A stretch of 64,000 nucleotides of DNA from an uncultured virus (IMG/VR IMGVR_UViG_3300011912_000001) (taxonomy: Duplodnaviria; Heunggongvirae; Uroviricota; Caudoviricetes). The DNA is taken from the IMG/VR virus record IMGVR_UViG_3300011912_000001, one strand, 5' to 3'. This document shows, piece by piece, positions 6,606 to 39,448 of this stretch. The notes under the pieces are model-generated. The model did not search any database. It was not told where the DNA came from and worked only from the letters and a program-made list of their open reading frames with translations. Positions within the stretch are counted from its first letter, which is position 1, and the number at the start of each line of letters is the position of its first letter. The position numbers were made by a program, and so were the translations under genes.

Positions 6606-6617
6606 AATACATAACCT

Positions 6618-6646
6618 CCTATAGGAAGAAGGGGCGTAGCCCCGGC
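6618..6646 (-). promoter_or_regulatory. hairpin element copy (GGGGC-GTA-GCCCC), divergent flanks
   Basis: same stem and loop as the 14.9-22 kb copies; sits just upstream of an RBS; could also act as a terminator. Confidence 0.45.
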
Positions 6647-6659
6647 TTTCTTTTTTATT

Positions 6660-13595: not shown

Positions 13596-13824
13596 AAGAA
13601 CTCTATTAGTAATAATAGTAAGAGTTATTAAGATTAAGAGAGATAATGAATAAGAATTAAATAGAGTAGTAGATAATCAAGTAAAGATTAGAAAGAGTAG
13701 AATACCTGTAAAAACACCTACATTTGATGAAATATGGCTTAGAAACACCTTAATCCTAATAAATATGGTCTAGAAACACTCACATCTGATGAAAAAATAC
13801 CTACATTCCTATAAATATGGTATC
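13596..13824. repeat. AT-rich purine-skewed tract followed by phased direct repeats (AAACACC...AAATATGG), origin- or operator-like
   Basis: repeat units start at 13712, 13743, 13774 and 13795. Confidence 0.7.
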
Positions 13825-13972
13825 ACGCCCCCAAATAATTGGTGGTCAGAGTAGCGTTTCGAAGGATAAGTGGTCAGTCGTTATTCACTGGTATTGTATA
13901 CTTATGCAGAAAGTGTTCAAAATTCCCGGGGTAGTTGCATACCCTTTCTCGTTTATGCAAGATTGTTGCATA

Positions 13973-14167
13973 TTAGGGGGAATCAAAGAAGCGTCGAATA
14001 GCGTTGTGGTGTTTTTGTTTCATGTGTCGGATGCTTTTAGAGAGGTCGACGACGGTGTGCGGGTTCTTGAGGTGACGGGATTTGAGTTTGCGTTTGAGGT
14101 CAGTGTCTTTGTCGGTGACAATGAATCCGCCATGTTTGGTTTTAGAGATGGTATACTTCTTCTTCAT
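13973..14167 (-). CDS. small basic protein
   Basis: AAGGAG RBS; K/R/H-rich, 64 aa. Confidence 0.65.
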   Translation of the reverse strand: MKKKYTISKTKHGGFIVTDKDTDLKRKLKSRHLKNPHTVVDLSKSIRHMKQKHHNAIRRFFDSP

Positions 14168-14181
14168 GGGTTTCTCCTTTC

Positions 14182-14655
14182 TTAGAGAGATAAGTTCGGT
14201 GGTTGTGTGGACTTGAATTCCATGTGAATGGATTTGAAGAAGCGGATGACGGAAGCGTGCTGATATTCTTGCATGGGTAAGAAGTCTTGTAACGCTTCTT
14301 CTAGGTCTTCAAGGGAACGGATGGGCGTGCACCGTTTCATGTCGAGGCGGGCACAGGTAGGAGTTGTTTTTTGTGTTCCGTGTTCGATGCGGGCGAACCG
14401 TTTCTTATCAAAGTGTTCTTCAGAACCAGAGGCATGCATCTGTTTGATGTAGGCAATGAGTTGTTCTTGTTCTTCGATAGTCCCTCTTGTGATACAGAAG
14501 TTTAAGTCAAAGATGTCTTCTGAGTCTCCGGCGAGCACGAGGGTACGGACTTCTTTCTTTGAAGGAATCATCGATTTCTTTTGGATGGTGACGGCGATGT
14601 AACGGGGTTGTCCTAATGGATTCCGGTATAGATAAAAGTCTCCGACTGTGAACAT
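14182..14655 (-). CDS. hypothetical, family A (FTVGDFY start, PNLSL end)
   Basis: start at MFTVGD after AAGGAAG. Confidence 0.72.
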   Translation of the reverse strand: MFTVGDFYLYRNPLGQPRYIAVTIQKKSMIPSKKEVRTLVLAGDSEDIFDLNFCITRGTIEEQEQLIAYIKQMHASGSEEHFDKKRFARIEHGTQKTTPTCARLDMKRCTPIRSLEDLEEALQDFLPMQEYQHASVIRFFKSIHMEFKSTQPPNLSL

Positions 14656-14686
14656 AGTACATCTTCCTTTCTTACGGCTAGAGTTT

Positions 14687-14770
14687 AAAAAAATCCCTAG
14701 AGAAAAGCCATCACGGATGTGTTTCTCCTTTTTTAGAAAAAGTCCCACAGGGAAGCCATCGCGGATGTGT
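14687..14770. repeat. imperfect tandem duplication (48-bp period), each copy ending in a GGATGTGT box
   Basis: aagccatcacggatgtgt at 14705 and aagccatcgcggatgtgt at 14753. Confidence 0.7.
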
Positions 14771-14784: not shown

Positions 14785-14894
14785 TAAAAAGATGGAAACA
14801 GAGCAGACGCTGTCGCGGAATAAGGAGAAGGGGAAGGCTCCTTACGCCGTGACAACGCCCGCTCCGTTGAGGACGCTGAGATAACGAATCAATC
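14785..14894 (-). ncRNA. putative long-hairpin sRNA with C-rich apical loop
   Basis: ~70-nt stem 14798-14867 with G-U pairs on the minus strand; loop CCUUCCCCUU; 3' U tract; lies directly after a hairpin element. Confidence 0.55.
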
Positions 14895-14920
14895 AAAAGA
14901 AGAGGGGCGTAGCCCCCCGC
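14891..14920 (-). promoter_or_regulatory. hairpin promoter-like element
   Basis: AATCA-N9-GGGC-GTA-GCCC-CCCGC. Confidence 0.65.
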
Positions 14921-14928
14921 CTTTGACC

Positions 14929-15528
14929 TTAAAACGCTTTGTCGCTGATGATTGGCGGAACCGTTGGAGTCTCCGTCGCACCCGCTGTTTGTTCTTGAAC
15001 CTGAGCTTGCGCTTGCGGTTGAACAGCACCAGCGCCACCTGCGCCACCTAGAGCGGCGACGAGGAGGGCGATAGTGTTAGCGTCAAGACCAGCAAGAGCG
15101 GCGAGAGCCGGATTCGCTTGAGCTTGTGCCTGAGCTTGTTGCTCGACAGAAGCTTGTTTACATTTCGAGTGAACATGTTTGAGTACTTGTGCGCGCACCG
15201 ACTGATTCAGACGGTATTCGTCACGGTATTTCTTTTCCCCGTTCTCGATGTACTCACGAGAAGGGAAGACGAGCCGGACAGAGTTCGCGTCTTGTTTCCC
15301 ACGGAAAGCTGAGAAGTAGAACGAACCAACGACAGTGTGCAATTGTACCTGACCGATGACACCGGATTTCGCTTGCGCCTCAGAAGAAGCTGGAACGATG
15401 ACGATGTTTTCGATACCTAGGTCAGCGTTAGAAGAAGCGTCTGTAGACTTTTCGTCTTGAAGATACCAGAGCGGTCCTTTTGTGTCGTTGACTTTCGATT
15501 GGTCGAGTACGAGTCCTTGGATTTGCAT
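14929..15528 (-). CDS. SpoVG-like nucleic-acid-binding protein with Q/A/G-rich tail
   Basis: VRLVFPSREYIENGEKKYRD resembles the SpoVG core. Confidence 0.55.
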   Translation of the reverse strand: MQIQGLVLDQSKVNDTKGPLWYLQDEKSTDASSNADLGIENIVIVPASSEAQAKSGVIGQVQLHTVVGSFYFSAFRGKQDANSVRLVFPSREYIENGEKKYRDEYRLNQSVRAQVLKHVHSKCKQASVEQQAQAQAQANPALAALAGLDANTIALLVAALGGAGGAGAVQPQAQAQVQEQTAGATETPTVPPIISDKAF

Positions 15529-15612
15529 GAGTAATTCCTCCTTTTAACGTCACGTGGACAATTTGTGTACCCAGAAGAACTCCCGTCACCAAAAAGGATG
15601 GAGTGTTCTCTG

Positions 15613-15642
15613 AATCAAGAAAAGAAGGGCGTAGCCCCCCGC
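15613..15642 (-). promoter_or_regulatory. hairpin promoter-like element
   Basis: AATCA-N9-GGGC-GTA-GCCC-CCCGC. Confidence 0.65.
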
Positions 15643-15671
15643 CTTTAAAAGGTTTTAGGGTTTTCCGCTTT

Positions 15672-15733
15672 TCCCTGCCATCATCAGACCTACGGAGGGT
15701 ACCCGTAGATGACGTCTCTCGACGTTTCGGCAT
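15672..15733 (-). ncRNA. type II hammerhead ribozyme
   Basis: UGCC-GAAA-CGUC(GAGA)GACG-UC^AUCUACGG(GUACCCU)CCGUAGGU-CUGAUGA-U-GGCA-GGG; predicted cleavage between 15711 and 15710. Confidence 0.85.
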
Positions 15734-15735
15734 GT

Positions 15736-15765
15736 AATCATTAAAAGAAGGACGTAGTCCCCCGC
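15736..15765 (-). promoter_or_regulatory. hairpin promoter-like element (compensatory stem GGAC/GTCC)
   Basis: AATCA-N9-GGAC-GTA-GTCC-CCCGC. Confidence 0.65.
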
Positions 15766-15767
15766 TC

Positions 15768-15983
15768 TTAAAGGTTTTCATAAAGAATGGAGCCAAAAAA
15801 GACAGTAGCGAATACTGTCATACCAATGCATTTCATCATTTCTTCGAAAGCAAAAGAGCGTTTGACGGTGTCTTTCGAGTATCGGACGCGCCACCACTTG
15901 CCTATGACAATCAAGGTTAAGCGCCACATGTTTAATAACACTACGGCATAGAATGTGACGAATAGGACCGCTAAGATGGACAT
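15768..15983 (-). CDS. small two-TM membrane protein
   Basis: two hydrophobic stretches; RBS AGGAGG. Confidence 0.65.
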   Translation of the reverse strand: MSILAVLFVTFYAVVLLNMWRLTLIVIGKWWRVRYSKDTVKRSFAFEEMMKCIGMTVFATVFFGSILYENL

Positions 15984-15994
15984 GAGGTTTCCTC

Positions 15995-16180
15995 CTACAT
16001 TTGACTGACTTTGTAGATAAAGATGATGCCGATGGCCATGACGCCACCCCATAGCAGAGAGTGGTCGATGACCCGTCTATCGATGTAAGCAATCTTCAAG
16101 AACAATGCCCCTAGAGCGATGATGCATAAACCGATAAGATACAAGAATGATTTGACGAGTTCTAGTTCATCTGATGCCAT
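15995..16180 (-). CDS. small two-TM membrane protein
   Basis: two hydrophobic stretches; RBS AAGGAGG. Confidence 0.65.
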   Translation of the reverse strand: MASDELELVKSFLYLIGLCIIALGALFLKIAYIDRRVIDHSLLWGGVMAIGIIFIYKVSQM

Positions 16181-16232
16181 GGGGATGACCTCCTTATATG
16201 TAAGGGGAGCGGGCTCGTACTCCCCGCGTACC

Positions 16233-16793
16233 TTACGCTTTTACTTCAGAAGTTTCCGCTTCTGCTTGTTTCGCTTCGAAATTTTGATTGAGCACAGAAA
16301 GCAATGATGCCATTTGCGTGCCTAGTTCTTGGAGCGTTTGTTCGTTACGAGCCATGCGTTCTTGCATGCTGTTGTCACCCGTCAGACCTTCCGGTAATTG
16401 GATGTTGATGACCGGTTGTTGGTCGGGTTTAACCGTAGAGCGTGGGTCGACTGGGTCTGCACCCATGAAGCGACGAGCCTTCTCTAAGAGAGAACCGTTC
16501 GCATACTGGTGTTCCCGGTGCTCATACGCTTGGACTTTCTTCTCGAAGTTGCGGGCTTCTTGTTTCATGCCGGCGACTTCGACAGCAGAGTGCTGGACGT
16601 CTTGGAGTTCAAGACCAATGTGAGAAGCAATTTGTTGCAAGAGGATGGCATGTCCTGCCATGTCCACTTTCAGGTTCGAGATTTCATCGTTGAAGACAGT
16701 TTTCGATACCGGGAGCATGCCACCGACACGTTGGATTAAAGGCTTGTCCTGAGGACGCTGATAATATTCTTGTACGAATTGGTTGAGTTGCAT
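16233..16793 (-). CDS. coiled-coil hypothetical protein
   Basis: ORF with RBS. Confidence 0.7.
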   Translation of the reverse strand: MQLNQFVQEYYQRPQDKPLIQRVGGMLPVSKTVFNDEISNLKVDMAGHAILLQQIASHIGLELQDVQHSAVEVAGMKQEARNFEKKVQAYEHREHQYANGSLLEKARRFMGADPVDPRSTVKPDQQPVINIQLPEGLTGDNSMQERMARNEQTLQELGTQMASLLSVLNQNFEAKQAEAETSEVKA

Positions 16794-16827
16794 GGGATAA
16801 CTTCCTTTCTAATGTGGGAGTAGTGAG

Positions 16828-16857
16828 CCCTATAAGAAGGAGGGCGTAGCCCCCCGC
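16828..16857 (-). promoter_or_regulatory. hairpin promoter-like element (CCCTA in place of AATCA)
   Basis: GGGC-GTA-GCCC-CCCGC. Confidence 0.55.
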
Positions 16858-16875
16858 TCTTAAGGTTTTAAGGTC

Positions 16876-16980
16876 TTAATGAAAAGCGAACGATAAAGTA
16901 AAGTACGCCATCGCTAATAAGCCGACGGCGATACTGATACTTTCCATGATATCGTGATAATGCGGATGTTTGCGTTTCAT
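16876..16980 (-). CDS. 34-aa membrane peptide (not in ORF track)
   Basis: MKRKHPHYHDIMESISIAVGLLAMAYFTLSFAFH; TGATG coupling with the upstream gene. Confidence 0.45.
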   Translation of the reverse strand: MKRKHPHYHDIMESISIAVGLLAMAYFTLSFAFH

Positions 16981-17348
16981 CACTGCACCACCGTCAGGAC
17001 TTTGTTGATAGCCCCTAGACGATAGCCTTGCGTGCCATCATTACGGACGTTGCCGTATGGGATGGTATTGCGGACATCAAAGCAATCGATGCAGATGTTG
17101 CCGTCATCACTGTAGACGCGGGCGAGGGCACACGTGTTCATGAATGGATTGACGACAGCATAGCTCGTGTTGTTTGGAAGGTCGAAGGCTTCCGGTGCAG
17201 TCAGCTGTAAGTCCGCCACGATTTCATAGACGCTTAACCCAAACTCTTTGATTTTAGAAAGGACAGTGGGAGTGGCGCCGACGATGACGTCTTGCCCCTC
17301 GATTGTCATAGTATCCTCGAAGTTAAAATGTTTGATAGACGTAGTCAT
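16980..17348 (-). CDS. hypothetical protein
   Basis: AAGGAG RBS. Confidence 0.7.
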   Translation of the reverse strand: MTTSIKHFNFEDTMTIEGQDVIVGATPTVLSKIKEFGLSVYEIVADLQLTAPEAFDLPNNTSYAVVNPFMNTCALARVYSDDGNICIDCFDVRNTIPYGNVRNDGTQGYRLGAINKVLTVVQ

Positions 17349-17385
17349 GATAATAGTCTCCTTTTTGTATGCGATTGAGTTATGG

Positions 17386-17889
17386 TCATTGAGTGACGCG
17401 ATGGCTTTCCACGTAGGTCTTCCACGGGAAAGTATAGCCGGGTTTCTTATTCAGGATGAGCCCACTGTAAGCGTCTTTCTGGGTTCCGTCCCATAACCAG
17501 AGTATCCAGTCACTTTCATGGATGAGCGTCCGGTTTCGTTGGTTGAGCATTTGGTATTGGTCAGAGGTCGGGTTGTCATGGATATAGAGGGCTTGCCCCC
17601 GAAGTTCCAGTTGTTCCCGCACCTTCCGCCAATCTTCTCCCTGTTTATGCCCGAAGCCCGGGAAAGGTAAGATGAGCTGAATCTGGTCGGCGTATCCGTT
17701 ATAGAATAACCATTTCATGGCACGACTGTCCCAGTGGTCCGCACACCCGATTAAGAACGTATGTCCTTGGGGTGCAAGAGCACTGAGGATGTCTTCTTGC
17801 CACTTCCAGATATCATCAAGCTTTGGGCTGTTGCGGTTGTAGTACGGATGGTGTTTCCGCATCCGCATGCCGATGACACCAATTTTCAA
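17386..17889 (-). CDS. YspA-like (DUF1273) SLOG-family protein
   Basis: KIGVIG.R, G.ADHWD, LILPF, QRNRTLIHESD.IL.LWDG. Confidence 0.7.
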   Translation of the reverse strand: MKIGVIGMRMRKHHPYYNRNSPKLDDIWKWQEDILSALAPQGHTFLIGCADHWDSRAMKWLFYNGYADQIQLILPFPGFGHKQGEDWRKVREQLELRGQALYIHDNPTSDQYQMLNQRNRTLIHESDWILWLWDGTQKDAYSGLILNKKPGYTFPWKTYVESHRVTQ

Positions 17890-18203
17890 GGGGTTTCACC
17901 TGCCTCTGCCTTCCATGAAATAAGAAGATGCGCGGGATGCGTTTGATGGACAGTGAACCCACGATAGGTCAATTGTTCCATAATGGCTTCATCGTAAGCA
18001 TGAATGTTTGAGAAAAGGAATTCATAGTCAGACAATGAGATATGGTGCGAGTATAAGCCTCGTGCGGCACGTGGCATGCAGTCCGCTATCATCTCTTCTG
18101 CGGCGTTGATGATTTTTACATTGAGTACGGCGTCCTCATGTTGTTTCTGAAGATTCCGTTCGTTTGCCATAAAACGAAAGATTTCTGCTTCTGTAGACAT
18201 CAT
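17886..18203 (-). CDS. hypothetical, family C
   Basis: AARG, RGFTV, LLISW. Confidence 0.7.
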   Translation of the reverse strand: MMSTEAEIFRFMANERNLQKQHEDAVLNVKIINAAEEMIADCMPRAARGLYSHHISLSDYEFLFSNIHAYDEAIMEQLTYRGFTVHQTHPAHLLISWKAEAGETP

Positions 18204-18221
18204 GGATATCTCTCCTCTCAT

Positions 18222-18252
18222 AATCAAGAACAGGAGGGCGTACGCCCCCCGC
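18222..18252 (-). promoter_or_regulatory. hairpin promoter-like element (GTAC loop)
   Basis: AATCA-N9-GGGC-GTAC-GCCC-CCCGC; RBS begins a few nt downstream. Confidence 0.65.
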
Positions 18253-18261
18253 TCTTTGTTC

Positions 18262-18621
18262 TTAGAATTGGGAGGAAGCGCGTATGACCGCACCCAATTC
18301 TTTGAAGACTTCTTCGAGTTCATCAGGTGTCCAATCAACATGTAAGAAGATAGAACCGGTATGGTTGTCAAGGATGACATGGGCTTTGTAGTCGAACTTA
18401 CGGAGTTCCAGCGCAACCGCCTCTAAGTTTCCTAAGCTTGCGAAGAAGTTGTTGTCAAAAGGCAAATCGCTGATAGGAACTTTCACATAGGTCATCCCTT
18501 TATTGGCTTCTGTTTCAATTAAGCCGGCAAGAGCCGTGACGATTCTTTTGGTAGCAATTTGTTTGGCACGTCGTTTCGTAGCTTCCTGTGTGATGGTGTA
18601 CATTTCCTGTGCGTTTTTCAT
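18262..18621 (-). CDS. hypothetical, family C
   Basis: MKNAQEM, EANKG, FDYKA, LHVDW. Confidence 0.7.
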   Translation of the reverse strand: MKNAQEMYTITQEATKRRAKQIATKRIVTALAGLIETEANKGMTYVKVPISDLPFDNNFFASLGNLEAVALELRKFDYKAHVILDNHTGSIFLHVDWTPDELEEVFKELGAVIRASSQF

Positions 18622-18661
18622 GAGTATCTCCTCCTTTGGGTATGTAAGAGCCAGAAGGCTC

Positions 18662-18967
18662 TTATTGGAACTGGGCTTCGTATTCCTCCTGTAGCGCATT
18701 GACCTTGATAGGGTCGAGCGGAAGAATCTCTGGAAGCAACGGCGTATGACTATAGTCAATCGTGTACGCCAATTGCATTTCCAAGATACGAGCTTTGGCG
18801 ACAGCCGAATACAACCGCTGTTCACTGTTCATACGAATGAAGTCTTGATTCTTCGCAATGAGGTCATTGACAAGACCGTTGACGACAGAGGCTAACCCGA
18901 CAGTGATGTCATCGAACTTCTTTGTGTTGTTGAGGATGTGCTGATACGCGTAGATTTGTTCTTCCAT
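18662..18967 (-). CDS. hypothetical protein
   Basis: ORF with RBS. Confidence 0.7.
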   Translation of the reverse strand: MEEQIYAYQHILNNTKKFDDITVGLASVVNGLVNDLIAKNQDFIRMNSEQRLYSAVAKARILEMQLAYTIDYSHTPLLPEILPLDPIKVNALQEEYEAQFQ

Positions 18968-19011
18968 GGATAATCTTCCTTTCTATAAGGTGAATGGCTA
19001 CAGGCACTGAG

Positions 19012-19041
19012 AATCATTAAGAGGAGGGCGTAGCCCCCCGC
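19012..19041 (-). promoter_or_regulatory. hairpin promoter-like element
   Basis: AATCA-N9-GGGC-GTA-GCCC-CCCGC. Confidence 0.65.
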
Positions 19042-19051
19042 CCTTTATCTT

Positions 19052-19255
19052 TTAAAAGAATAGATTAAGGAATAGAATGCCGAAGAATAAAACGAATTGA
19101 AGTAAGAGATTGAATCGCTGGACCTTCAAGTTCCCTTTAAGTTGTTGGCTGGTCCCATGCTCTTGAATGAGCCGAAGGGCTTTGCGGTAATTGTGTATGC
19201 TTACAATGAGGCATACGAACAACACTACTAAACAAATGATGGTGAAAGTAGACAT
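19052..19255 (-). CDS. small two-TM membrane protein
   Basis: hydrophobic ends; AAGGAGG RBS. Confidence 0.65.
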   Translation of the reverse strand: MSTFTIICLVVLFVCLIVSIHNYRKALRLIQEHGTSQQLKGNLKVQRFNLLLQFVLFFGILFLNLFF

Positions 19256-19256
19256 T

Positions 19257-19302
19257 GGATGTGTCCTCCTTTTGGATGTGTGTTCTCACTGGAGATGTGT
19301 GT
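19257..19302. promoter_or_regulatory. three GGATGTGT boxes (17/19-bp spacing)
   Basis: boxes at 19257, 19274 and 19293. Confidence 0.55.
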
Positions 19303-19306
19303 CCAT

Positions 19307-19331
19307 AAAAAAAGAGAGCCCGAAGGCCCTC
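19307..19331 (-). terminator. intrinsic terminator, cUUCGg loop
   Basis: GAGGGCC-UUCG-GGCUCUC-U7. Confidence 0.85.
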
Positions 19332-19617
19332 AATATTGTTTGAACTTAGCGTGCGTAATCATCATGTTGATGTCTTTACCTTCATGCTCATAATGAACAT
19401 CAAACCCATAAGGAATCTTATAGAAGACCTTTTCTTCTGGGTCGACAGAGACTTCGTAAAGACGCTGACCTTCGTTGTTGAAGGTAACGAGACGAATCGC
19501 GGTGATGCCCTCGTAACGGACACCATCAGCGTAGATAGCAGAGTATTCGCGCGTCTCCGTCGTATCTTCATGTGGAAGTGGTTTGATAGTAGTAGTTGGT
19601 TGGATGACAGGGTTCAT
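19330..19617 (-). CDS. hypothetical protein
   Basis: GAGGAGG RBS before MNPVI. Confidence 0.65.
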   Translation of the reverse strand: MNPVIQPTTTIKPLPHEDTTETREYSAIYADGVRYEGITAIRLVTFNNEGQRLYEVSVDPEEKVFYKIPYGFDVHYEHEGKDINMMITHAKFKQY

Positions 19618-19889
19618 GCTATTGCCTCCTCTAGGATATGGAATGTGACAATACGTTTTGATGGAATGCATGTTTCATTATATTTAACGACAGCTTCATC
19701 GAGAGGCGTGTGCCGTGTATCGACATTCCCCGCAATCGATTGCTGGCTTAAGACTTTCTTCTCAAAGTCAAAAGCGTTGATGCACGAGATATTGTTATTA
19801 ACGAATACCCCGCGCTGACCATTTTCTAACATAACTTCGACGAGCGGACGTTCTACCATTTTAGAAGAATGCGTGTCATAGAATAACAT
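19614..19889 (-). CDS. hypothetical protein
   Basis: translationally coupled on both sides. Confidence 0.6.
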   Translation of the reverse strand: MLFYDTHSSKMVERPLVEVMLENGQRGVFVNNNISCINAFDFEKKVLSQQSIAGNVDTRHTPLDEAVVKYNETCIPSKRIVTFHILEEAIA

Positions 19890-20074
19890 TAGATAGCCCC
19901 CAATTGTTTAAGAGTTTTTTTGAAACCAGCTTGACGTGCTTCGTACTGTTTCGTGAGCTCATCAATCTGAGCGTCGGTCTTCCGTTTTTCTTGGACAATC
20001 GAGTAAGCGGCGACATACATCGCAAACGTATAGAGAATAGCACCTTTAAGTAATAATTTACCAACTTTTTTCAT
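19889..20074 (-). CDS. small membrane-anchored protein
   Basis: one TM helix followed by a coiled coil. Confidence 0.6.
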   Translation of the reverse strand: MKKVGKLLLKGAILYTFAMYVAAYSIVQEKRKTDAQIDELTKQYEARQAGFKKTLKQLGAI

Positions 20075-20088
20075 AATGAATCGCTCCC

Positions 20089-20268
20089 TTAGAATAATGT
20101 ATTTAAAACGAAGATAAGACCGCCGACACCGACGAAGAAACTAGAGAAGGCTAACTTGAAACAATCGCGAAGCAGAAGGTACCGCGCAATATACGCGATA
20201 CCGACGACGTACGCACAAAACACGAGATACATGGATGCCATCATGAAGAAAAGCAATTGGTCGTTCAT
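20089..20268 (-). CDS. small two-TM membrane protein
   Basis: hydrophobic; RBS GAGGAGG. Confidence 0.6.
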   Translation of the reverse strand: MNDQLLFFMMASMYLVFCAYVVGIAYIARYLLLRDCFKLAFSSFFVGVGGLIFVLNTLF

Positions 20269-20591
20269 TTGCTTTCCTCCTCTAGGCGCCACGCTTGAGC
20301 ATATTTCTGATACTCACGAGCAACGTCTTCCCGTTTGCATGTTGCAAGTTCAACCGTATGCCAAAACTGTTTTCCTTGATAAGCCAACTTCACATCTTGC
20401 GTGATGACAGCCATATCCGTGTTCATCGTCATTTTCGGGCATAACCGTTTGATGACATGACAGCGGTGAGGCTTATCCGCTGAAGGTGGGGATTCGATGA
20501 ATTCCCCAGTTGCCGGGTTAACATTGGATGTGTATTTCCCCCGACGGAAGAATTTGTCCATTTCGACTTCCCGTTCAATTTGTTCATACAT
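20265..20591 (-). CDS. hypothetical protein
   Basis: AAGGAG RBS. Confidence 0.65.
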   Translation of the reverse strand: MYEQIEREVEMDKFFRRGKYTSNVNPATGEFIESPPSADKPHRCHVIKRLCPKMTMNTDMAVITQDVKLAYQGKQFWHTVELATCKREDVAREYQKYAQAWRLEEESK

Positions 20592-20620
20592 GTGAATCGC
20601 TCCTTTTCATATAAAGTTGT

Positions 20621-20651
20621 AATCAAAGAAAGGAGGGCTGTAGCCCCCCGC
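20621..20651 (-). promoter_or_regulatory. hairpin promoter-like element (TGTA loop)
   Basis: AATCA-N9-GGGC-TGTA-GCCC-CCCGC. Confidence 0.65.
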
Positions 20652-20653
20652 TT

Positions 20654-20836
20654 TTAATCTTGTTGATGCAGTTGTTCGAACCGAAGCGCTTGCTCCGCTT
20701 GTGCCTGTGTTTTATAGTAGCCGGACTGACGGTCATAGGGAACATCGAAGACCATGCCATCGACTTCATCTTCGCATGTCCGTCCAAGGTAATAACCAGC
20801 ATTAGAATGTAAAACTTGTAGTTCAGAAATGTTCAT
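20654..20836 (-). CDS. small conserved-looking protein (SNAGYYLG ... SGYY)
   Basis: 60 aa; RBS AAGGGGAG. Confidence 0.65.
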   Translation of the reverse strand: MNISELQVLHSNAGYYLGRTCEDEVDGMVFDVPYDRQSGYYKTQAQAEQALRFEQLHQQD

Positions 20837-20862
20837 GTAAATCTCCCCTTTGCATAGATTAG

Positions 20863-20893
20863 AATCAAGAGCAGAAGGCCGTATGGCCCCCGC
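20863..20893 (-). promoter_or_regulatory. hairpin promoter-like element (compensatory GGCC/GGCC stem)
   Basis: AATCA-N9-GGCC-GTAT-GGCC-CCCGC. Confidence 0.65.
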
Positions 20894-20906
20894 CCTTCAT
20901 CATAAA

Positions 20907-20968
20907 GGATATGTATAGCAATTGGATATGTATAGCCGAAGGATGTGTGTGGCTACTGGGGATGTGTT
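20907..20968. promoter_or_regulatory. four GGATRTGT boxes (17/17/19-bp spacing)
   Basis: boxes at 20907, 20924, 20941 and 20960. Confidence 0.6.
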
Positions 20969-20975
20969 CGGGATT

Positions 20976-21000
20976 AAAAAAAAAGGAGCCCGAAGGCCCC
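20976..21000 (-). terminator. intrinsic terminator, cUUCGg loop
   Basis: GGGGCC-UUCG-GGCUCC-U9. Confidence 0.85.
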
Positions 21001-21001
21001 A

Positions 21002-21280
21002 TTAACGCCAAGAACCAACAGGATTACCATGGTAAACGTCCCATGCGTCCATATAGGATTCATCGTATTCATCATGTGTACCGACCATGGATTCAACAGC
21101 AGTAATTGCCCATGTTCCCATTGCCCCAAAATGAGGATACCCGGGAACAAGTAATTCAGATTTATAAGACAGAAGAGCAGGATGTTGATTAGTTAAAGCA
21201 TTTGCCCGGTGGGCATCAACCAGTGTATTAATAGATAGAGCCAAGCGATGTAAACCATCAGAATAATCATATTGTAACAT
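21002..21280 (-). CDS. hypothetical protein
   Basis: likely start MLQYD, downstream of the hairpin element at 21311. Confidence 0.55.
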   Translation of the reverse strand: MLQYDYSDGLHRLALSINTLVDAHRANALTNQHPALLSYKSELLVPGYPHFGAMGTWAITAVESMVGTHDEYDESYMDAWDVYHGNPVGSWR

Positions 21281-21310
21281 TTGAACCATTCCCTTCAGTA
21301 TGAGATTATC

Positions 21311-21341
21311 AATCATATGTAGAAGGGCGGTAGCCCCCCGT
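21311..21341 (-). promoter_or_regulatory. hairpin promoter-like element (GGTA loop)
   Basis: AATCA-N9-GGGC-GGTA-GCCC-CCCG. Confidence 0.65.
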
Positions 21342-21387
21342 TTTAACATTAAATATTTACTATGTGCCGGAGGGTGAGTAAGCCCCC

Positions 21388-21419
21388 GGTCACACAATAT
21401 CCACTGGCGTAGCCCCCGC
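21388..21419 (-). promoter_or_regulatory. degenerate hairpin element
   Basis: GGC-GTA-GCC-CCCGC; AATCA absent. Confidence 0.35.
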
Positions 21420-21687
21420 ACTCCTGCGCGAGACTACACCTAAATCCCTCCTACCCGGTGGAACGGGGGAGACCTAACAATTAAGGGTAAAGCTTATGCC
21501 TCCATCAACTCCCCTGTTAGGAAGAGAGTTGATGTGTGTTGGAGGACTTGTGAACCCCTGACCGAACTCACCCCCAACACATAGGAGTGAGCACAGGAAG
21601 TCCGCCCTTTTGCTCTGAAGAAATCCAATGAGGAGTGGGCGGACTTCTATACCCGAAGGTACATCAGTTCGCATACCTCATTGAATC
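21420..21687 (-). ncRNA. putative structured ncRNA (~265 nt, at least 4 hairpins, 2 possible pseudoknots)
   Basis: UUCG hairpin 21649-21662; 11-bp stem 21597-21607/21637-21647; 9-bp stem 21503-21511/21526-21534; two 8-nt loop complementarities. Confidence 0.6.
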
Positions 21688-21714
21688 AACAAAAGAAGGG
21701 CGTATGCCCCCCGC
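21684..21714 (-). promoter_or_regulatory. hairpin promoter-like element (GTAT loop)
   Basis: AATCA-N9-GGGC-GTAT-GCCC-CCCGC. Confidence 0.65.
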
Positions 21715-21734
21715 CTTTTGCTTTTGAACTTGCC

Positions 21735-21977
21735 CTAAAAGAAGGGCAATCCATTGTCCTCTTTCGGAGGAACGAATGGTTTTTTCTTTAACCGCTCTTG
21801 CAAGCGGCGGTCGTCGGCTTCAAATGCCAACTGTACACGTTTCCGGGAAATGGCTCCCCGGTATTCCGCGTACATTCCGTTCAATTGGTGCAAGGACTTA
21901 CTTTCGTACCAGTGTAACGGGTACGGTAATACCAAACGCAATAAAGAAACAATAAACTCTCGTGACATCGTTGTCAC
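21735..21977 (-). CDS. small basic protein ending DNGLPFF
   Basis: AAAGGAG RBS; SSB-tail-like terminus. Confidence 0.6.
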   Translation of the reverse strand: MTTMSREFIVSLLRLVLPYPLHWYESKSLHQLNGMYAEYRGAISRKRVQLAFEADDRRLQERLKKKPFVPPKEDNGLPFF

Positions 21978-21993
21978 TCCTTTCTAGTTGTAG

Positions 21994-22023
21994 TACCTAA
22001 GCAAGATGGCCGTAGGCCCCCGC
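21994..22023 (-). promoter_or_regulatory. hairpin promoter-like element (GGCC-GTA-GGCC)
   Basis: compensatory stem; CCCGC flank; ACCTA in place of AATCA. Confidence 0.5.
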
Positions 22024-22090
22024 CTGTAAGGGTTTAAAACCCCTAGCCGAAGGCCCAATAGCCAACCGTATAGAAAAAGGGTGCCCACTC

Positions 22091-25204: not shown

Positions 25205-25329
25205 GATTTTTCCCCTATTCTCCTGCATGTGCAGGGCCTCATACGGTATTTTCCGTCCTGTTGGCAGTAAATAATCAACAAAAAAAGAGGGCATCTCACC
25301 CCTCCACATTCGCTGTTACGATTTGATTC

Positions 25330-28300
25330 TTAGAACATACGACCCATTTTGAAGATACCTGCTTTGATATCTTCGCGGACTTTCGTTGGCGATGGAGCAT
25401 CTGTGAATACGCTGAGCACGTGTGTTAACTCACGAGCGAACGCACCACCGTGTTTTGCTTCATCGATTGCCCAACGGACAACACACGTTAACCATGTTGC
25501 GAGGTCATCGTAGAAACGACCTTCTGCAAGAAGATAACGTTGCTTCTCTGCATGCTGAAGACGAACAGCTAGTTCGTACTCTGCTTGAATCTCAAGCTGA
25601 ATGTCTTCGATGTTCATTAAACGGTTCGTCCACAAACCGATTGATGATGCTTTTGAAGTCTCGACGATGTGGAGTGCCGCCATCCGGTTGAAGACATAGT
25701 ACACGTCTTGTGGACGGTTTAGAACATCTTCTTCGTTGAATTCAAGCTCCCATGTGCGACCGTTGTTGTCTGTACGTTGTACGACTTCAAGGCCTTCTGG
25801 GATATCAACGAAGCGACGTAAATCAACTGCTTCTTTCGGTTCTGACCATGGGCAACCACCTTTTGGAGCAGACGTTCCAGAAAGGTAGAAGTCGAGGATT
25901 GGTGTCTTGTTCTCGAATGGTTCAACCATTAACGAGTTGAAGATGACGAGACACGTATCTCCATCGAAGTCAGCCCCTGACATCGCCTCTGTTGTCATGT
26001 CAACAGAGTTAAACAACACGAGTCCTTTGAAGAAGCCCATTTTCGCGGCTTTCTCATAGTAAGCTCGTGCTTCTTCTGAGCCGAACTTGTCGGTTGCGAA
26101 GACTTTACGAATCTCCTCGCGTTTCAATGCAGGATAACGTGCGGCAATGAACTCTCCTACACGTAAGTTGCCATCTGCATCGACAACGACTGCACAGCCA
26201 GCTGGAATAGACGGTACCCATTCCATCTTCGGTACTGCGACGCCTTCTTTACGTTGACGGTTGATGGACTTCACCGCTGACATCACCATGAAGATGTCAA
26301 AGCCCATATGACGCATTTTAGCGTCGTCAACCAAGACGTTACCTAATACGATTTTCTCAAGTGATTTCGTCAAGAGACTCGCAAGGCGTTGTTTCTGTAC
26401 ACCATCTTTCAGTGCACGTGGTGCTTGTTTGAGAACGGCTTTAACGCCTGTTTCTCCTTCGATGATGTCATTGAACTCTTCGTTCGCATCCAATTCTTCG
26501 AGTTTTGACTCATCGAAGTTGTCTGTAACACCAAGGAGTTTCAAAGCTTTCGATGCAGAGAACAACGATGCTTGAATCCGTCCTTTTGAAATCTGGTGAA
26601 GACGTTTGAGGTTCTTCTTCGGCGTTCCTGTCGCCAAAAGAGCCTGTGTTGCTACAGGCGCGATATCCTCTTTGAACTCTTTACGCGACCCTTGTACGAC
26701 CGCGAACTCGAAGCGTCCTTCGAGCAAAGCAGGAAGCACGTCAAGTTTCAACGCACCAGACATAAGAATCATGTCATATCCTGTTTCTTCTTTAAGCATC
26801 GGTGTACCGTATGCGAACGGTTTAACACCGGCAACACCTCGTCCTTGGAACGATTGTCCTTCATGCTCCAAAATTCCTTCAGCTACAAGGAACTGAGTGA
26901 TTTCAGGAGACACCAAGATACCACCGTCAACGAGGTTCTTTTCGAAGTCTTTTGTAACAGTAGTAATCGCCGGTTTCCCTGTCTTTTCATCCAATTTGTT
27001 GACGACTTTAGCAGTCGCACGAACAAGATGGGTAGGGTCCTCGATGATAAGGATGTTACGTTTGACGCCACCCATCATTTTATTGACAGATGTCAGCTCG
27101 ATTCCCTCTTTATCTTTGTTCTCATCATCTTGATAAGGGAAGCGGTCTGTGATTTCAAGCTGACCGAACAATTTGCCCATCACATTCGATGGACGCGAAC
27201 CAGACGCCGGCATGTCTGTACGCTTAGGGTCTTTATCCATTTTGAAGACCCGTTTGTTCATTGCTTTGTTCAATTTACCGTATTCATGCATACGATACGT
27301 TGCAACAAAGCGGCCATACACCGCAAGCGAACGTGCGGCTTCGTTGAACAAGAGTTTATGCATGTTTGCATACCCTTCTTGCTCTCCGTATTGCCAAAAT
27401 GCCGCCTCTCCCTTACGCGTTTGGGAAGGAGCCGCACTGTTCAAGGTAAAGACCTTGATTTTCTTCTGACTCTCATCAAGCAAGAGAACACCGTTCAAGA
27501 TAGTGTTCTTGATAAGAGCATCAAGCGCATCTTCCGACACTGTGCCAAATTGATTGACGACAGTACTCGATGTGAAGATGTCTGTCAGCTTCTCAACGAC
27601 AAGTGATACTTTGAGGTTGAGTTGCTTTGTGTTGTCATATCCTTCTACTTCTTGGACGATGACATCTTCCCGGTTTAACGGGTCTTTCTTTGTAATAGGG
27701 AATGTCGTTAAGACTTTCGCCGTATCACGGACAAGCATACTTTCACTGTTGCGTTGAACGAGTGTATTCTCGTTCATCACAGAATCTTCTACGCGTGTAG
27801 AACCACGTAGGAACATGAACAATTGAACCGACTCATCGATTGTCAATTGGTTCATATCATCTGTTTTCAACAGGTGCTTGAGTGTTTTAGGCTCAAGACT
27901 CGTGAACTTGCCTTTTGCATCGAAGAATGCAAGATTCACGTTATCAGCTGATAAGTTGAACGACGGTTTCTTCGGACCTGTCGTTTTCTTCAAGCCAGAC
28001 CGTTTGAACAACTCAGCAATAGAGAGTCGTCCTTTCGGTTGTTTTGCTGGTTTCGCTTTCTCAAACTTCGCTTTTGGTGCTTTTGCGAAGAATTGAATAC
28101 GAAGTGCCAACTTGTATTCTGACAAGAAGTTCGGGATTTCAACTTCTGCCATTTGCGTCAACATCAAAAGAAGTTGACGAGCACGTTTTTGAGCCGGTGC
28201 CAAGGCTGTTTGACGTGCTTGTTTGTTGTTTGCACGTCGTTCTTGCTTCTCAGCTGTTTTCATAGCCAAGACTCCTTTCTTAAGCGCTTTCTCTGCGCGG

Positions 28301-28443
28301 TATACACGTGCAGTAGCTTTCGCTACCTTTTTCTCGCGTTTTGAAACACGGATTGAAGCATCTTGCAATTCAGCAAGACGTGCTTTCGCTACTGCTACTT
28401 CGTTTGCCAATACGTTTACTGTTGCTGTTGTTACTGTTTTCAT
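25330..28443 (-). CDS. yonO: YonO/QDE-1-like double-psi-barrel RNA polymerase
   Basis: MSGADFDGD (DFDGD at 25957-25971), LVDGG, FQGR..GVK, ARYP, IDEAKHG; K/A-rich N-terminal extension. Confidence 0.85.
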   Translation of the reverse strand: MKTVTTATVNVLANEVAVAKARLAELQDASIRVSKREKKVAKATARVYRAEKALKKGVLAMKTAEKQERRANNKQARQTALAPAQKRARQLLLMLTQMAEVEIPNFLSEYKLALRIQFFAKAPKAKFEKAKPAKQPKGRLSIAELFKRSGLKKTTGPKKPSFNLSADNVNLAFFDAKGKFTSLEPKTLKHLLKTDDMNQLTIDESVQLFMFLRGSTRVEDSVMNENTLVQRNSESMLVRDTAKVLTTFPITKKDPLNREDVIVQEVEGYDNTKQLNLKVSLVVEKLTDIFTSSTVVNQFGTVSEDALDALIKNTILNGVLLLDESQKKIKVFTLNSAAPSQTRKGEAAFWQYGEQEGYANMHKLLFNEAARSLAVYGRFVATYRMHEYGKLNKAMNKRVFKMDKDPKRTDMPASGSRPSNVMGKLFGQLEITDRFPYQDDENKDKEGIELTSVNKMMGGVKRNILIIEDPTHLVRATAKVVNKLDEKTGKPAITTVTKDFEKNLVDGGILVSPEITQFLVAEGILEHEGQSFQGRGVAGVKPFAYGTPMLKEETGYDMILMSGALKLDVLPALLEGRFEFAVVQGSRKEFKEDIAPVATQALLATGTPKKNLKRLHQISKGRIQASLFSASKALKLLGVTDNFDESKLEELDANEEFNDIIEGETGVKAVLKQAPRALKDGVQKQRLASLLTKSLEKIVLGNVLVDDAKMRHMGFDIFMVMSAVKSINRQRKEGVAVPKMEWVPSIPAGCAVVVDADGNLRVGEFIAARYPALKREEIRKVFATDKFGSEEARAYYEKAAKMGFFKGLVLFNSVDMTTEAMSGADFDGDTCLVIFNSLMVEPFENKTPILDFYLSGTSAPKGGCPWSEPKEAVDLRRFVDIPEGLEVVQRTDNNGRTWELEFNEEDVLNRPQDVYYVFNRMAALHIVETSKASSIGLWTNRLMNIEDIQLEIQAEYELAVRLQHAEKQRYLLAEGRFYDDLATWLTCVVRWAIDEAKHGGAFARELTHVLSVFTDAPSPTKVREDIKAGIFKMGRMF

Positions 28444-29165: not shown

Positions 29166-29212
29166 GAGGAATTACCCCTTTCGTCCGCATCCGGTTTCTC
29201 CGGCTTATTGGA

Positions 29213-29375
29213 TACCCCTTATATATAGGGGCTTATATAGAACCCCCTATATAGACCCCCTTCTATAGAGGGCCTTATATAGAGGCCTTGCTATAGGCAC
29301 CCCTATATAGAGGCACCCATATACAGCACCCTATATAGGCACCCCTCCATATGAGGGCCTACCTATATAGGGATA
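29213..29375. repeat. array of ~11 short palindromes centred on TATA(TA), CCCTATATAGG-like
   Basis: direct inspection; period roughly 13-17 bp. Confidence 0.85.
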
Positions 29376-29379
29376 CTGC

Positions 29380-29571
29380 TCAATACTCTGATGTAGGATA
29401 GGCGATTAATACAATCTCTTCGCCATCTACTACTACATCGTACAAACAGTACCCTTTGTCAGGATACTGTTGCTTGAAGAGGTCAATTACCCCTACCTCA
29501 AGCTCAACATCTTTATCTCCGGTGTATACGTATGTGTATACACCTACTTGGTTGAATACTGGTACTGACAC
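29380..29571 (-). CDS. small hypothetical protein
   Basis: GTG start after GAGGGGAG. Confidence 0.55.
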   Translation of the reverse strand: MSVPVFNQVGVYTYVYTGDKDVELEVGVIDLFKQQYPDKGYCLYDVVVDGEEIVLIAYPTSEY

Positions 29572-29651
29572 AACAAATACTCCCCTCTATAGCTCATGCA
29601 CTATATGTGCCCTATTGCCTACACCCCTATATAAGCGGGTGTTCTTACCAA

Positions 29652-30855: not shown

Positions 30856-31139
30856 TGAGTGTATTGTTGGATGATGCGTTCGATGTTCGGTATCAAAAGA
30901 AGCCAGATGAGTCCAATGGCGTCTTGTTGTACATGCATCGCATCGATGTCGGCGGGTTAATCGGAGATTTAGAAGATTTATTCTTTAATTATGAGGGAAC
31001 CCACTATGAGTTCTTTGATATTGAGATTGTCGGATGGAAAAAAGAGCATTCTGCCTTTATCTATTACATTCAATTTAAGAGAATGCGGTATACCCGCGAA
31101 AAAGCCCAAAAAGCACCACAAGAAGTGGTCAGTGCTTAA
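30852..31139 (+). CDS. hypothetical protein
   Basis: ATGA-coupled ORF. Confidence 0.6.
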   Translation: MMSVLLDDAFDVRYQKKPDESNGVLLYMHRIDVGGLIGDLEDLFFNYEGTHYEFFDIEIVGWKKEHSAFIYYIQFKRMRYTREKAQKAPQEVVSA

Positions 31140-31325: not shown

Positions 31326-31877
31326 GTTCCCTTGAAAGAGAGACTCAAAGACATCACCTTGTTTAAATTGATGTTAGTTGGAATAGGAAGTCTCGGCGGC
31401 GTCACCTGTTTTATCTTAATCACCGACATCTTCAAGTAATACTTATTAAGAGAGTAAGAGAGACGAAAGAGAAAGACCTGATTAGTACAGAGTCGCTATA
31501 GAAAAACCAGTTGGCGGCGGGAACATACTCTTTGTATGTGGGGCGTTAGCCCTCCTATCCCTTATCTAATAGGAGTAGAGAGTAATAAAAGTCTATAGGG
31601 AGATACCTCTATAGAGAGAGAAGTAATAGAACTTCATTACCCTAGTAGTAGGCGAAGCCGGAGATATCTAACCCGGAGCTTCGTCTTTTTGCCGTGTTCA
31701 GCACTTTCTCTTGAGATTTGACGCATAAATGGTTACATTTCAGGCAGAACTTCTCTATGCTTACGCATCAGACCGTAATAAGCACAAATGTCAGGAAAAT
31801 AATCCTGTAAAAATTCGATTCATAAATGAATGGTAATCCTAGACCGTAGCGTGCCAAAAAGGTCAGGAAAAGAAAGG

Positions 31878-38800: not shown

Positions 38801-39448
38801 AAAAAACTGCAACAATTGGACAAGATTTACAATCCTTTTGCAATATACGTCGATAAAGGTGCCGGAGACTACCAATCAGAGGTATTACGTAAAACGATTG
38901 GAGATAAGGTACGGGCGGTTGCATTCGGAAGCACAGAGCTTGTACGAGACCCTATCAGCCGAACCCTTGATAAGAAACCACTGAAGGCATTCATGGTTAA
39001 CATGACGACATTATTCCTTGACCGGGGTCAATTACGGATTCCGTCAAAAGACGTCGATGATACCGTCAACCGTCAGATGACAAAATATCAAGTCAAACGG
39101 ATTGCGCCGAAAACTGGCGAACCTACTTACTCAAATGAAGATGAACATGCACTCGATGCATTCATGCTGACACTCTATGCTTTTAATACTGTTTATCCTG
39201 ATTTAGCGAAAGCACTTGAGGTTAAAGATGTGGCAAGACAATTTTCAACTGTGAAACGAGAATTTGTGGACCCGTTAAAAGAAGTCTTTGCGAACAATAC
39301 GTTCTCAGAGAAGAAGGCAGAAGGATGGGACGAGCCGGGGGCTCCGCCGCCGAAGCGGACGACGCTTGGACGGAAGAAGAACCGTGATTCATTGGATTGG
39401 GGAAGTAGAGGGCAACGTTCTTCCTTTAGAGGAAGAGACCATTTTTAA
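35857..39448 (+). CDS. terL: terminase large subunit; join(35857..37563,38168..39448), with intein
   Basis: Walker A GRRIGK|T, Walker B LYMD|EVD after splicing, ASTPTG, nuclease GVDW ... HALDA. Confidence 0.93.
36028..37254 (+). mobile_element. intein (409 aa) with LAGLIDADG-type endonuclease region
   Basis: CIAGD start, TGNHP block B, ILVHN|T end, MLGYLVAGG / FIAALYDVGG. Confidence 0.92.
37564..38167 (+). mobile_element. group I intron in terL (604 nt)
   Basis: P1 GGAU/GUCC with U-G wobble, GGCAATCCTGAG, CAACGACTA, GATATAGTC, terminal G; splicing restores D-E of Walker B. Confidence 0.9.
37643..38113 (+). CDS. intron ORF, possibly a degenerate homing endonuclease
   Basis: GGAGG RBS; overlaps the ribozyme core; YQWKAHEL faintly LAGLIDADG_2-like. 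Confidence 0.5.
   Translation: MHQSDKVYRQNLQHLSETVGQSIVDMVRNAPLHGNPEECPVAVTGWSATTISKESREQALSKYPTTLVMMEMKMRESFGNYKRGGQYYFIGEGRVFDDITFYQWKAHELIPVVLNVTQESVDSLKLYTDLQYVPKEDFIVYRTMEMMRTAYQELMI

Follow-up and report, generated by a model that had tools for sequence, protein, structure and literature searches.

What is the function of a short hairpin that recurs, in gene sense, between the small genes of an uncultured tailed phage? The question is raised by IMG/VR record IMGVR_UViG_3300011912_000001 (Caudoviricetes), of which one stretch of 64,000 nucleotides (nt) was analysed as a whole and is called the window below. Eleven strict copies of the element, each about 40 nt long, lie at 14891-22030 of this window, downstream of a gene for a putative RNA polymerase. 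A preliminary description had proposed that they are hairpin promoters for this enzyme, which it considered to be of the YonO type. On the basis of the present analysis, the element is best read as a composite stop-and-restart cassette, of which the promoter part would be read by the phage polymerase while the hairpin would also close the RNAs arriving from upstream. We hold this reading tentatively, at a little under even confidence.

The element was read on the minus strand, which is gene sense, the genes from about 31.4 kb down to base 1 being on that strand. In this direction the unit consists of TTAAGAGCGGG, the hairpin GGGC-(TAC or TAC plus one base)-GCCC, the spacer TYCT-N5 and the pentamer TGATT (AATCA on the other strand). 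The strict pattern CGGGGGNCN{3,4}GNCC gave 11 matches, compared with a mean of 0.03 and a maximum of 1 in 100 shuffles. With a hairpin regular expression the stems were located within 14905..22018, every one in gene sense, and the other strand of the 64-kb window gave 0 matches. A covariance model trained on the copies recovered the same 11 in the window and nothing else credible; a weak match at 441-477 (E=0.31), inside coding sequence and on the opposite strand, was discarded. TGATT is found exactly 9 nt past the stem in 9 of the 11 copies, regardless of whether the loop has 3 or 4 nt, so that the invariant spacing described earlier for nine AATCA copies held in each of them. The two window copies without the pentamer are those with hairpins at 22008-22018 and 16842-16852. 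Across 27 copies the pentamer carries 1.3-1.8 bits per position and the positions beyond it at most 0.6 bits, which makes an abrupt edge, and a T-purine step is invariant at a fixed distance from the hairpin (10-11 nt from the stem), after a pyrimidine run.

The slot of the element lies between the stop codon of a small early-type gene and the next ribosome-binding site (RBS) or non-coding RNA (ncRNA), as had been stated before. The gap from stop codon to stem is 7-25 nt (7 copies) and that from pentamer to start codon 16-84 nt (8 copies). None of the small open reading frames (ORFs) adjoining elements belongs to a named family in PHROGs (78 ORFs searched). The copies, in the order in which the genes are read, and two related hairpins are as follows.

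21994..22030, minus strand: copy 1, hairpin 22008-22018; 5' flank present, TYCT and TGATT absent; the same TGATT-less form stands at this slot in both relatives (G1 and G2, see below)
21684..21721, minus strand: copy 2, hairpin 21698-21709 with a 4-nt loop, TGATT; a structured ncRNA of about 330 nt follows directly on the 3' side
21311..21348, minus strand: copy 3, hairpin 21325-21336, TGATT; start codon 30 nt downstream
20863..20900, minus strand: copy 4, hairpin 20877-20888 with stem GGCC/GGCC, TGATT; preceded by a canonical terminator and four ACAYATCC repeats
20621..20658, minus strand: copy 5, hairpin 20635-20646, TGATT; the 5' flank contains the upstream stop codon
19012..19048, minus strand: copy 6, hairpin 19026-19036, TGATT
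18222..18259, minus strand: copy 7, hairpin 18236-18247, TGATT; occupies the entire gap between stop codon and RBS
16828..16864, minus strand: copy 8, hairpin 16842-16852; TAGGG replaces TGATT
15736..15772, minus strand: copy 9, hairpin 15750-15760 with stem GGAC/GTCC, TGATT; hammerhead ribozyme candidate 4 nt downstream
15613..15649, minus strand: copy 10, hairpin 15627-15637, TGATT; on the 3' side of the hammerhead candidate
14891..14927, minus strand: copy 11, hairpin 14905-14915, TGATT; followed by a conserved long hairpin RNA with a T run
about 16205-16230, minus strand: decayed hairpin, at the slot of the full element G1_34314 in relative G1
about 6612-6650, minus strand: diverged relative of the element, with the same stem, TAC loop and TTCT tail, different flanks, no CGGGG flank and no TGATT

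Twelve copies and one more at 6618 had been reported. Eleven strict copies were borne out, the twelfth is presumably the decayed hairpin at 16205-16230, and the one at 6618 is only a diverged relative: it was missed by the covariance model at E<=1 and, to judge from its letters, is not a full member. Three other sites were considered and rejected. Two of them, a hairpin with TGATT at 25277 and another at 28518, lie beside the polymerase gene; TGATT of the former is lost in the related locus L012, and the latter is missing from G1 and L012. The third, a hairpin-like site at 31537-31556, has foreign flanks and no TGATT.

Two IMG/VR contigs, here called G1 and G2, were reached through the polymerase protein (65% and 43% identity, respectively), and both are syntenic with the window over the element region. 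They hold 14 and 11 copies, which gives 36 with those of the window; the relatives' copies are all in gene sense and mostly at matching gene slots, and 5 of these 25 were too diverged for the covariance model and were picked by eye or by pattern. Exact placement with respect to stop codon and RBS, and orientation tied to gene direction, were observed in 36 of 36 copies from the three genomes. TGATT occurs in 26 of the 36 (24 at 9 nt and 2 at 10 nt from the stem) and TGATA in 2 more. Decay does not account for the forms without TGATT; the slot of copy 1, behind the 376-aa gene, lacks it in all three genomes, and the pentamer at the slot of copy 8 reads TAGGG, TACGG and TAGGG across them. In G2 the loop is TTC in all 11 copies and the flank is GCG(C/G)AG in 8 of 11, whereas TAC and GCGGG are found elsewhere, and the slots are inherited. 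Such a lineage-wide change at inherited slots is the pattern expected if a signal evolves together with its reader.

The element appears to be specific to this phage lineage. The exact pattern was found in 1 of 2.9 million IMG/VR contigs, that one being a relative. A scan of 72 classical YonO loci with the element model gave nothing convincing, with one weak match inside a gene. A metagenome scan with the polymerase profile revealed one additional close locus only (L012, 7 kb), which is without the element region, and neither blastn of the region nor tblastn of the polymerase had matches in 50,697 phage records. A search of sequencing runs listed no RNA run containing the stretch. Small shares of it are present as contigs in two wastewater runs labelled RNA-Seq, and these are probably DNA; 0 reads of a raw-read run matched.

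The 4-bp core stem is fully paired in 34 of the 36 copies. The first two pairs are always G-C, the third is G-C, C-G or A-T, and the fourth is flipped in three G2 copies (GGCG/CGCC). At several matching slots the stems of different genomes are distinguished by two changes that compensate each other, such as GGGC/GCCC in the window versus GGCC/GGCC in G1; the covariation already noted within the window (GGGC/GCCC, GGCC/GGCC and GGAC/GTCC) is joined by GGCG/CGCC in a relative. The covariation score was reached by 0 of 500 shuffles, for a model-fitted alignment that leans to structure and misplaces some G2 rows. Both imperfect stems have A·C in sense and hence G·T on the template strand, which favours a template-strand hairpin (2 of 2). 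Triloops account for 25 copies and 4-nt loops for the other 11. On the template strand all 25 triloops are of the G-N-A type, in agreement with what had been claimed, namely GTA in the window and G1 or GAA in G2, with a C-G closing pair in 22 of 25 and a reversed one in three G2 copies. The 4-nt loops read GTA (GGA in one copy) plus one extra base on that strand. The only lineage-wide loop change hits the middle base alone. The flank change GGG to CAG in G2 is not matched by a compensating one on the downstream side, an indication that recognition of the flanks depends on their sequence rather than on a helix.

Three ncRNAs start just past an element.

15669..15732, minus strand: type II hammerhead ribozyme candidate, between copies 9 and 10
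21345..21688, minus strand: structured ncRNA of about 330 nt, between copies 2 and 3; counterpart in G2 at L001:16868-17250
14797..14868, minus strand: conserved long hairpin with a T run, 31 predicted pairs of which 10 are compensatory; follows copy 11

In the hammerhead candidate, the core CUGAUGA / GAAA / GUC and three helices align, with 33.6 bits compared with an Rfam gathering threshold of 37 (E=8e-4). Its counterpart in G2 (L010:168-228) scores 33.3 bits and has a helix III made of other letters, and in G1 a nearly identical hammerhead sequence stands behind the matching element. The RNA of about 330 nt has no match in Rfam; compensated changes affect 16 of its 83 predicted pairs. In both genomes that have this RNA, GAUU of the pentamer takes part in the first helix, paired to a downstream stretch and including a change from U·G to U-A, which implies that the RNA includes the G of TGATT. 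Between the long hairpin and gene 14182-14662, two units of about 48 nt (ACACATCC, a small hairpin and a T run) were seen at 14715-14770.

The preliminary description had also suggested that the repeats shuffle genes as cassettes, and the elements were indeed found to bound gene cassettes that come and go. One metagenome contig joins 20620 to 20863, equivalent points of neighbouring elements, with one gene and one element deleted. The slot between copies 2 and 3 holds the ncRNA in the window and G2 and an ORF in G1, and gene 19052-19255 is missing in G1. We propose that recombination between element copies moves gene cassettes in and out.

A consensus scan found no sigma-A-type promoter at any element. 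Over 13.5-32 kb, 18 sigma-A-like sites were detected compared with 27 expected, and the gene strand of 14.9-22 kb has two weak matches only, both within ORFs. By eye, no boxes spaced 16-18 nt apart were seen in the element flanks. A sigma-type reading of the element itself (TTAAGA or TTGATT as -35, CATAAT after TGATT as -10) was rejected, since the spacings do not fit. Canonical terminators and a second kind of repeat are found in the same region.

20976..21000, minus strand: canonical terminator, UUCG loop, run of 9 T
20907..20967, minus strand: four ACAYATCC repeats spaced 17-19 nt, between this terminator and copy 4
19307..19331, minus strand: canonical terminator, UUCG loop, run of 7 T
19257..19300, minus strand: three ACACATC(C/T) repeats, between this terminator and the next gene, with no element in between

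These UUCG-loop terminators (7-9 T) constitute a separate conserved family, next to which 2-4 ACAYATCC repeats and often an element follow in the three genomes. The earlier statement that true terminators nearby have another design (cUUCGg loop and pure U run) was confirmed, and one hairpin, G1_27550, is intermediate between the element and terminator families. The ACAYATCC arrays comprise 2-4 units at 17-19 nt spacing and are invariably right behind UUCG-loop terminators; they could be a promoter or a regulator-binding array. Arrays were also seen at 27940-27990, 28380-28430 and 30915-30950 of G1 and at 18760-18800 and 20480-20540 of G2, and some copies include AACA, the core of the late-promoter word of phage AR9. 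Behind the element region, 13598-14181 holds 584 nt without a convincing gene, with three tandem repeats (CCATATTTAT..AGGTRTTTTT) and the best gene-strand sigma-A-like site (13920-13893); it is probably the host-type promoter region of the next gene block.

The candidate reader is encoded upstream of the elements.

25330..28443, minus strand: polymerase gene, 1037 aa, ADFDGD at residues 824-829

The DFDGD motif noted before was confirmed, and ADFDGD is invariant in 10 of 10 relatives. Over the catalytic stretch there is a match to Pfam RdRP that does not reach the family cutoff (E=0.0015), and the nearest Atlas clusters are RdRP-domain proteins (score 0.94). The predicted structure is poor, with a predicted local distance difference test (pLDDT) value of 60 and below 50 over the catalytic stretch; the top Foldseek matches of this poor model are QDE-1 and plant RDR2 (E=4e-4, probability 0.99, template modelling score ~0.2). 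Direct comparison with SPbeta YonO by hhalign is weak (E=0.083), with the catalytic motifs aligned. A widened profile, built from the 600-1700-aa members of 92 representatives (HMMER, 1.84 billion proteins), scores SPbeta YonO at 48.6 bits (E=1.6e-15, 73 targets) over three stretches whose order is kept, and matches 33 of 73 YonO-family ORFs. The YonO relationship that had been asserted is supported by this result, and on such sequence comparison we accept the product as a remote member of the YonO/RdRP-like two-barrel group and a putative polymerase. The family-library scans (PHROGs, 78 ORFs; Pfam, 7 proteins) found no T7-like polymerase, and the putative two-barrel enzyme is the only polymerase candidate. 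The neighbouring 647/682-aa and 376-aa proteins had no informative family or Atlas match.

How could such an element work? As DNA, the conserved blocks (TTAAGAGCG, the GC hairpin with a TAC or TTC loop, TYCT and the pyrimidine run) would make up a promoter of another type than sigma-A. It would be read by the YonO/RdRP-like polymerase of the phage itself, perhaps assisted by a helper protein, and transcripts would begin with the purine behind the invariant T, that is, with the G of TGATT or the A of TAGGG. As RNA, the hairpin would stand at the 3' end of the upstream transcript, lengthened by G·U pairs, and might attenuate, end or protect that transcript. Recombination between copies would swap gene cassettes in and out. 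The promoter half is favoured because the motif is long, of fixed geometry and with a sharp 3' edge; because the T-purine step, whose distance is fixed, agrees with the start context reported for AR9, U(-1)/purine(+1); because the signal changes across whole lineages; because the strong terminators inside the region require internal starts that are not of the sigma-A type; because RNAs begin at the pentamer; and because phage P23-45 offers a precedent of many conserved promoters in a phage with two-barrel polymerases. A promoter for the phage polymerase, as proposed at the outset, remains the best single reading; we infer the start at the element, the identity of the reading polymerase and the action of the hairpin as DNA, as RNA or as both, the N4-type template-strand mechanism being a possible but conjectural form of its action as DNA.

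Comparison with known systems, drawn here from parts of the cited papers, places the element closest to the PeSL cassettes, which are composite promoter/terminator units of T4-type phages that mediate gene shuffling (PMC2839356, PMC4122927). In the passages compared, both are small composite units reaching from stop codon to Shine-Dalgarno sequence among small genes of unknown function; both have a G/C stem-loop including G·T pairs, a lineage-specific stem consensus and half-decayed copies; and in both, recombination between copies removes or swaps gene cassettes. However, PeSLs carry near-consensus sigma-70 -35 and -10 boxes, whereas no sigma-A-type boxes were found at the element, and the PeSL stem-loop is variably placed in its promoter, whereas the element hairpin is fixed relative to both flanks. 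By analogy with PeSL stem-loops, the hairpin of the element probably has a second role as RNA, exerted on the transcripts from upstream.

PeSL is the closest functional match, and N4 is a formal resemblance. The core of the N4 promoter hairpin is described as a loop with a sheared G:A pair (PMC4496689). Both N4 promoters and the element are inverted repeats with a 3-nt loop that reads G-N-A on the template strand and is closed by C-G; both have stems that combine conserved positions with others that may vary if pairing is kept; and both have a template-strand A run between hairpin and start and stand before early genes. On the other hand, N4 stems as described there have 5-7 bp, whereas the fully paired stem of the element has 4 bp in all 36 copies, short of that length. 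N4 has 3 promoters and the element 11-14 copies per genome; N4 loops have 3 nt, and 11 of 36 element loops have 4 nt; the N4 start is ~5 nt from the stem base, and the T-purine step of the element 10-11 nt away; and the N4 enzyme is a T7-like virion polymerase, for which the hairpin is extruded by supercoiling and SSB, while the only candidate here is a two-barrel one.

Two-barrel phage enzymes provide other parallels. Gp96/gp64 of Thermus phage P23-45 are reported with many copies of conserved motifs before (pre-)early genes (10.1101/2022.12.01.518664), and P23-45 and the crAss-like phage phi14:2 resemble the present case in that a phage-encoded single-chain two-barrel polymerase serves a (pre-)early gene block. 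However, the main-text passages on P23-45 promoters contain no 'hairpin', and the early transcripts of phi14:2 gp66 are described in the part consulted as having no common motif. Both gp66 and QDE-1 prefer single-stranded DNA (10.1101/2020.03.07.982082), which makes a structured-DNA promoter conceivable. The non-virion polymerase of AR9, a giant Bacillus phage, recognises its late promoter in the template strand and is able to initiate on single-stranded DNA (PMC5449584). It is likewise a two-barrel enzyme, and its start context U(-1)/purine(+1) is that of the T-purine step of the element; in contrast, it is multi-subunit and needs uracil, and its motif is a 4-nt word without hairpin.

For YonO itself, the enzymes of this type were shown to be true RNA polymerases in 2017, and the same paper states, in the part consulted, that the YonO promoter sequence is unknown (PMC5467207). 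The window polymerase is a remote homologue of SPbeta YonO, whose own start lies upstream of an ncRNA and late genes; the difference is that one start has been mapped there, compared with a dozen element copies here, and that the element model found nothing convincing near 72 YonO loci. Our literature search, which covered the text of the papers available, found no later paper defining the YonO promoter and none linking a hairpin promoter to a two-barrel phage polymerase. A published primer pair brackets the YonO start within 20574..20326 (minus strand) of the SPbeta locus L022. Compared with L023, L024 and L028, this bracket contains a hairpin whose stem letters vary between relatives with pairing kept, and a pyrimidine tract that has a 12-mer in common with one element copy and is followed by TCAT. 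The motif is not enriched at the 72 YonO loci, and ncRNA homology is seen in only 3 of them; to judge from the sequence, the hairpin is a possible lead, and a lead only, to the YonO promoter.

Several observations weigh against a cassette with a phage-read promoter. The first pair beyond the stem is G·T in sense in 20 of 27 copies, and A·C on the template strand; three positions outside the stem pair mostly via G·U, on the sense strand only, and such G·U-rich flanks are the signature of an RNA structure. Mean minimum free energy over 33 copies is -12.7 kcal/mol in sense and -9.0 antisense, that is, 3.7 better in sense, and a lenient terminator scan is passed by 7 of the 11 window copies. TGATT-less forms are stably kept at two slots, which means that the hairpin half serves some purpose by itself. 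The elements span only ~7 kb, so the polymerase would serve few genes, and the ACAYATCC repeats may be the real start signals after strong terminators. Moreover, PeSL hairpin families can homogenise by recombination alone, and sameness within a genome is thus no proof of a sequence-specific reader. Taken with the compensations and loops described above, the evidence on DNA versus RNA hairpin conflicts. We consider it improbable, on balance, that the hairpin is read as a DNA structure in the N4 manner. In that case a single-chain YonO/RdRP-like two-barrel polymerase would have as its promoter a template-strand C-GNA-G mini-hairpin followed by a purine-rich ruler, and the same 40 nt would also end the upstream RNA.

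The same RNA features could mean that the elements are intrinsic attenuators or terminators and nothing else: an RNA hairpin with a U-rich tail would step down long transcripts of the host (or phage) polymerase, and TGATT would be a pause or release context. The sense folds are indeed comparable in stability to the local canonical terminators (-11 to -16 kcal/mol), the copies stand 7-25 nt past stop codons, and G1_27550 bridges the two hairpin families, which adds to the scan result and to G·U extensions confined to the sense strand. However, 11 serial terminators in 7 kb would starve the distal genes, and the region already has a distinct, termination-optimised family (UUCG loop, 7-9 T). Element tails are C-interrupted, 4 of the 11 copies fail even the lenient scan, copy 1 and its counterparts are without any U-rich tail, and in G2 5 of the 10 folded copies are weak (-6.5 to -8.5 kcal/mol). 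Nor would a terminator that depends on structure alone explain why the letters of the loop, the TTAAGAGCG flank and the spaced pentamer are conserved, and ncRNAs right behind a terminator would have no promoter. Attenuation as the whole explanation thus appears rather unlikely to us. Another account built on RNA, which we also find doubtful, is that the element punctuates a polycistronic transcript: cleavage at or near UGAUU, by an endoribonuclease of the host or the phage, would leave the upstream 3' end protected by the hairpin and would free the ncRNAs from the polycistron. A hairpin followed by an AU-containing pentamer resembles RNase E/Y-type sites in phage mRNAs, and here the hairpin is indeed 5' of a single-stranded pentamer of this kind. 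Copies of the element flank the hammerhead unit on either side, and likewise the ~330-nt ncRNA, and a self-cleaving ribozyme candidate in the same region suggests that RNA cutting is in use. Yet a conserved site of 40 nt with a 5' flank far upstream of the cut is unusual for such nucleases, a cut after UGAUU would strip the GAUU that is paired in the first ncRNA helix, the slots without TGATT retain the hairpin, and promoters would still be needed after the strong terminators of the region.

A role unrelated to transcription was also considered, in which the element would be a nick or priming site, or the site of a HUH or transposase-like enzyme that binds hairpins. Enzymes acting on single-strand DNA cut at sites of similar layout, a hairpin with a short conserved word at a fixed distance, and some element copies are located at indel boundaries. 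Nevertheless, orientation follows gene direction, with exact placement at stop codon and RBS, in all 36 copies, no such enzyme was found in the family scans (Pfam, 7 proteins; PHROGs, 78 ORFs; NCBIfam, 6 proteins), and ordinary recombination between repeats accounts for the indels, so that we regard this role as very improbable. The composite cassette, with its promoter part read by the phage polymerase, remains our preferred reading.

Some other features of the window should be mentioned. The window belongs to a large tailed phage, with genes for portal, major head protein and sheath proteins, and a protein-cluster record places the polymerase gene on a 237-kb contig. Strong ribosome-binding sites of the GGAGG type make a host from the Bacillota probable. 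A group I intron (69 bits) at 37554-38138 on the plus strand interrupts a terminase-like gene, whose two parts lie at 35857-37596 and 38165-39448; ORF 37643-38113 is inside this intron, and one or two introns of the kind occur in the relatives. About ten CTATATAGGGG-type palindromes are densely arrayed at 29166-29651 (minus strand) and could be an origin or serve in packaging or as operators, and related words (CTATAGGGAGA / CTATAGAGAGAG) are found at ~31585-31615, in the divergent region. A nicotinamide phosphoribosyltransferase-like gene at 1515-3117 (minus strand) appears as overlapping ORFs (2332-3117 and 1515-2348) and may be split or frameshifted; it adjoins a ribose-phosphate pyrophosphokinase gene at 625-1464. 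A run of N (masked or unresolved bases) lies at ~505-514 within a coding stretch.

With regard to the biology of these phages, cassette shuffling of the PeSL kind is now seen outside the T4 group and without host-type promoters. The lineage offers 36 natural variants of a compact candidate signal in three genomes, including stem-swap and half-site mutants. If the element were only an attenuator or a processing site, it would still be an unusually uniform and sequence-specific one. If the hairpin were read as DNA, the N4 strategy would have been invented twice, the second time independently and in an unrelated class of enzymes with a preference for single-stranded templates, and the element would provide the first defined promoter for any enzyme of the YonO family.

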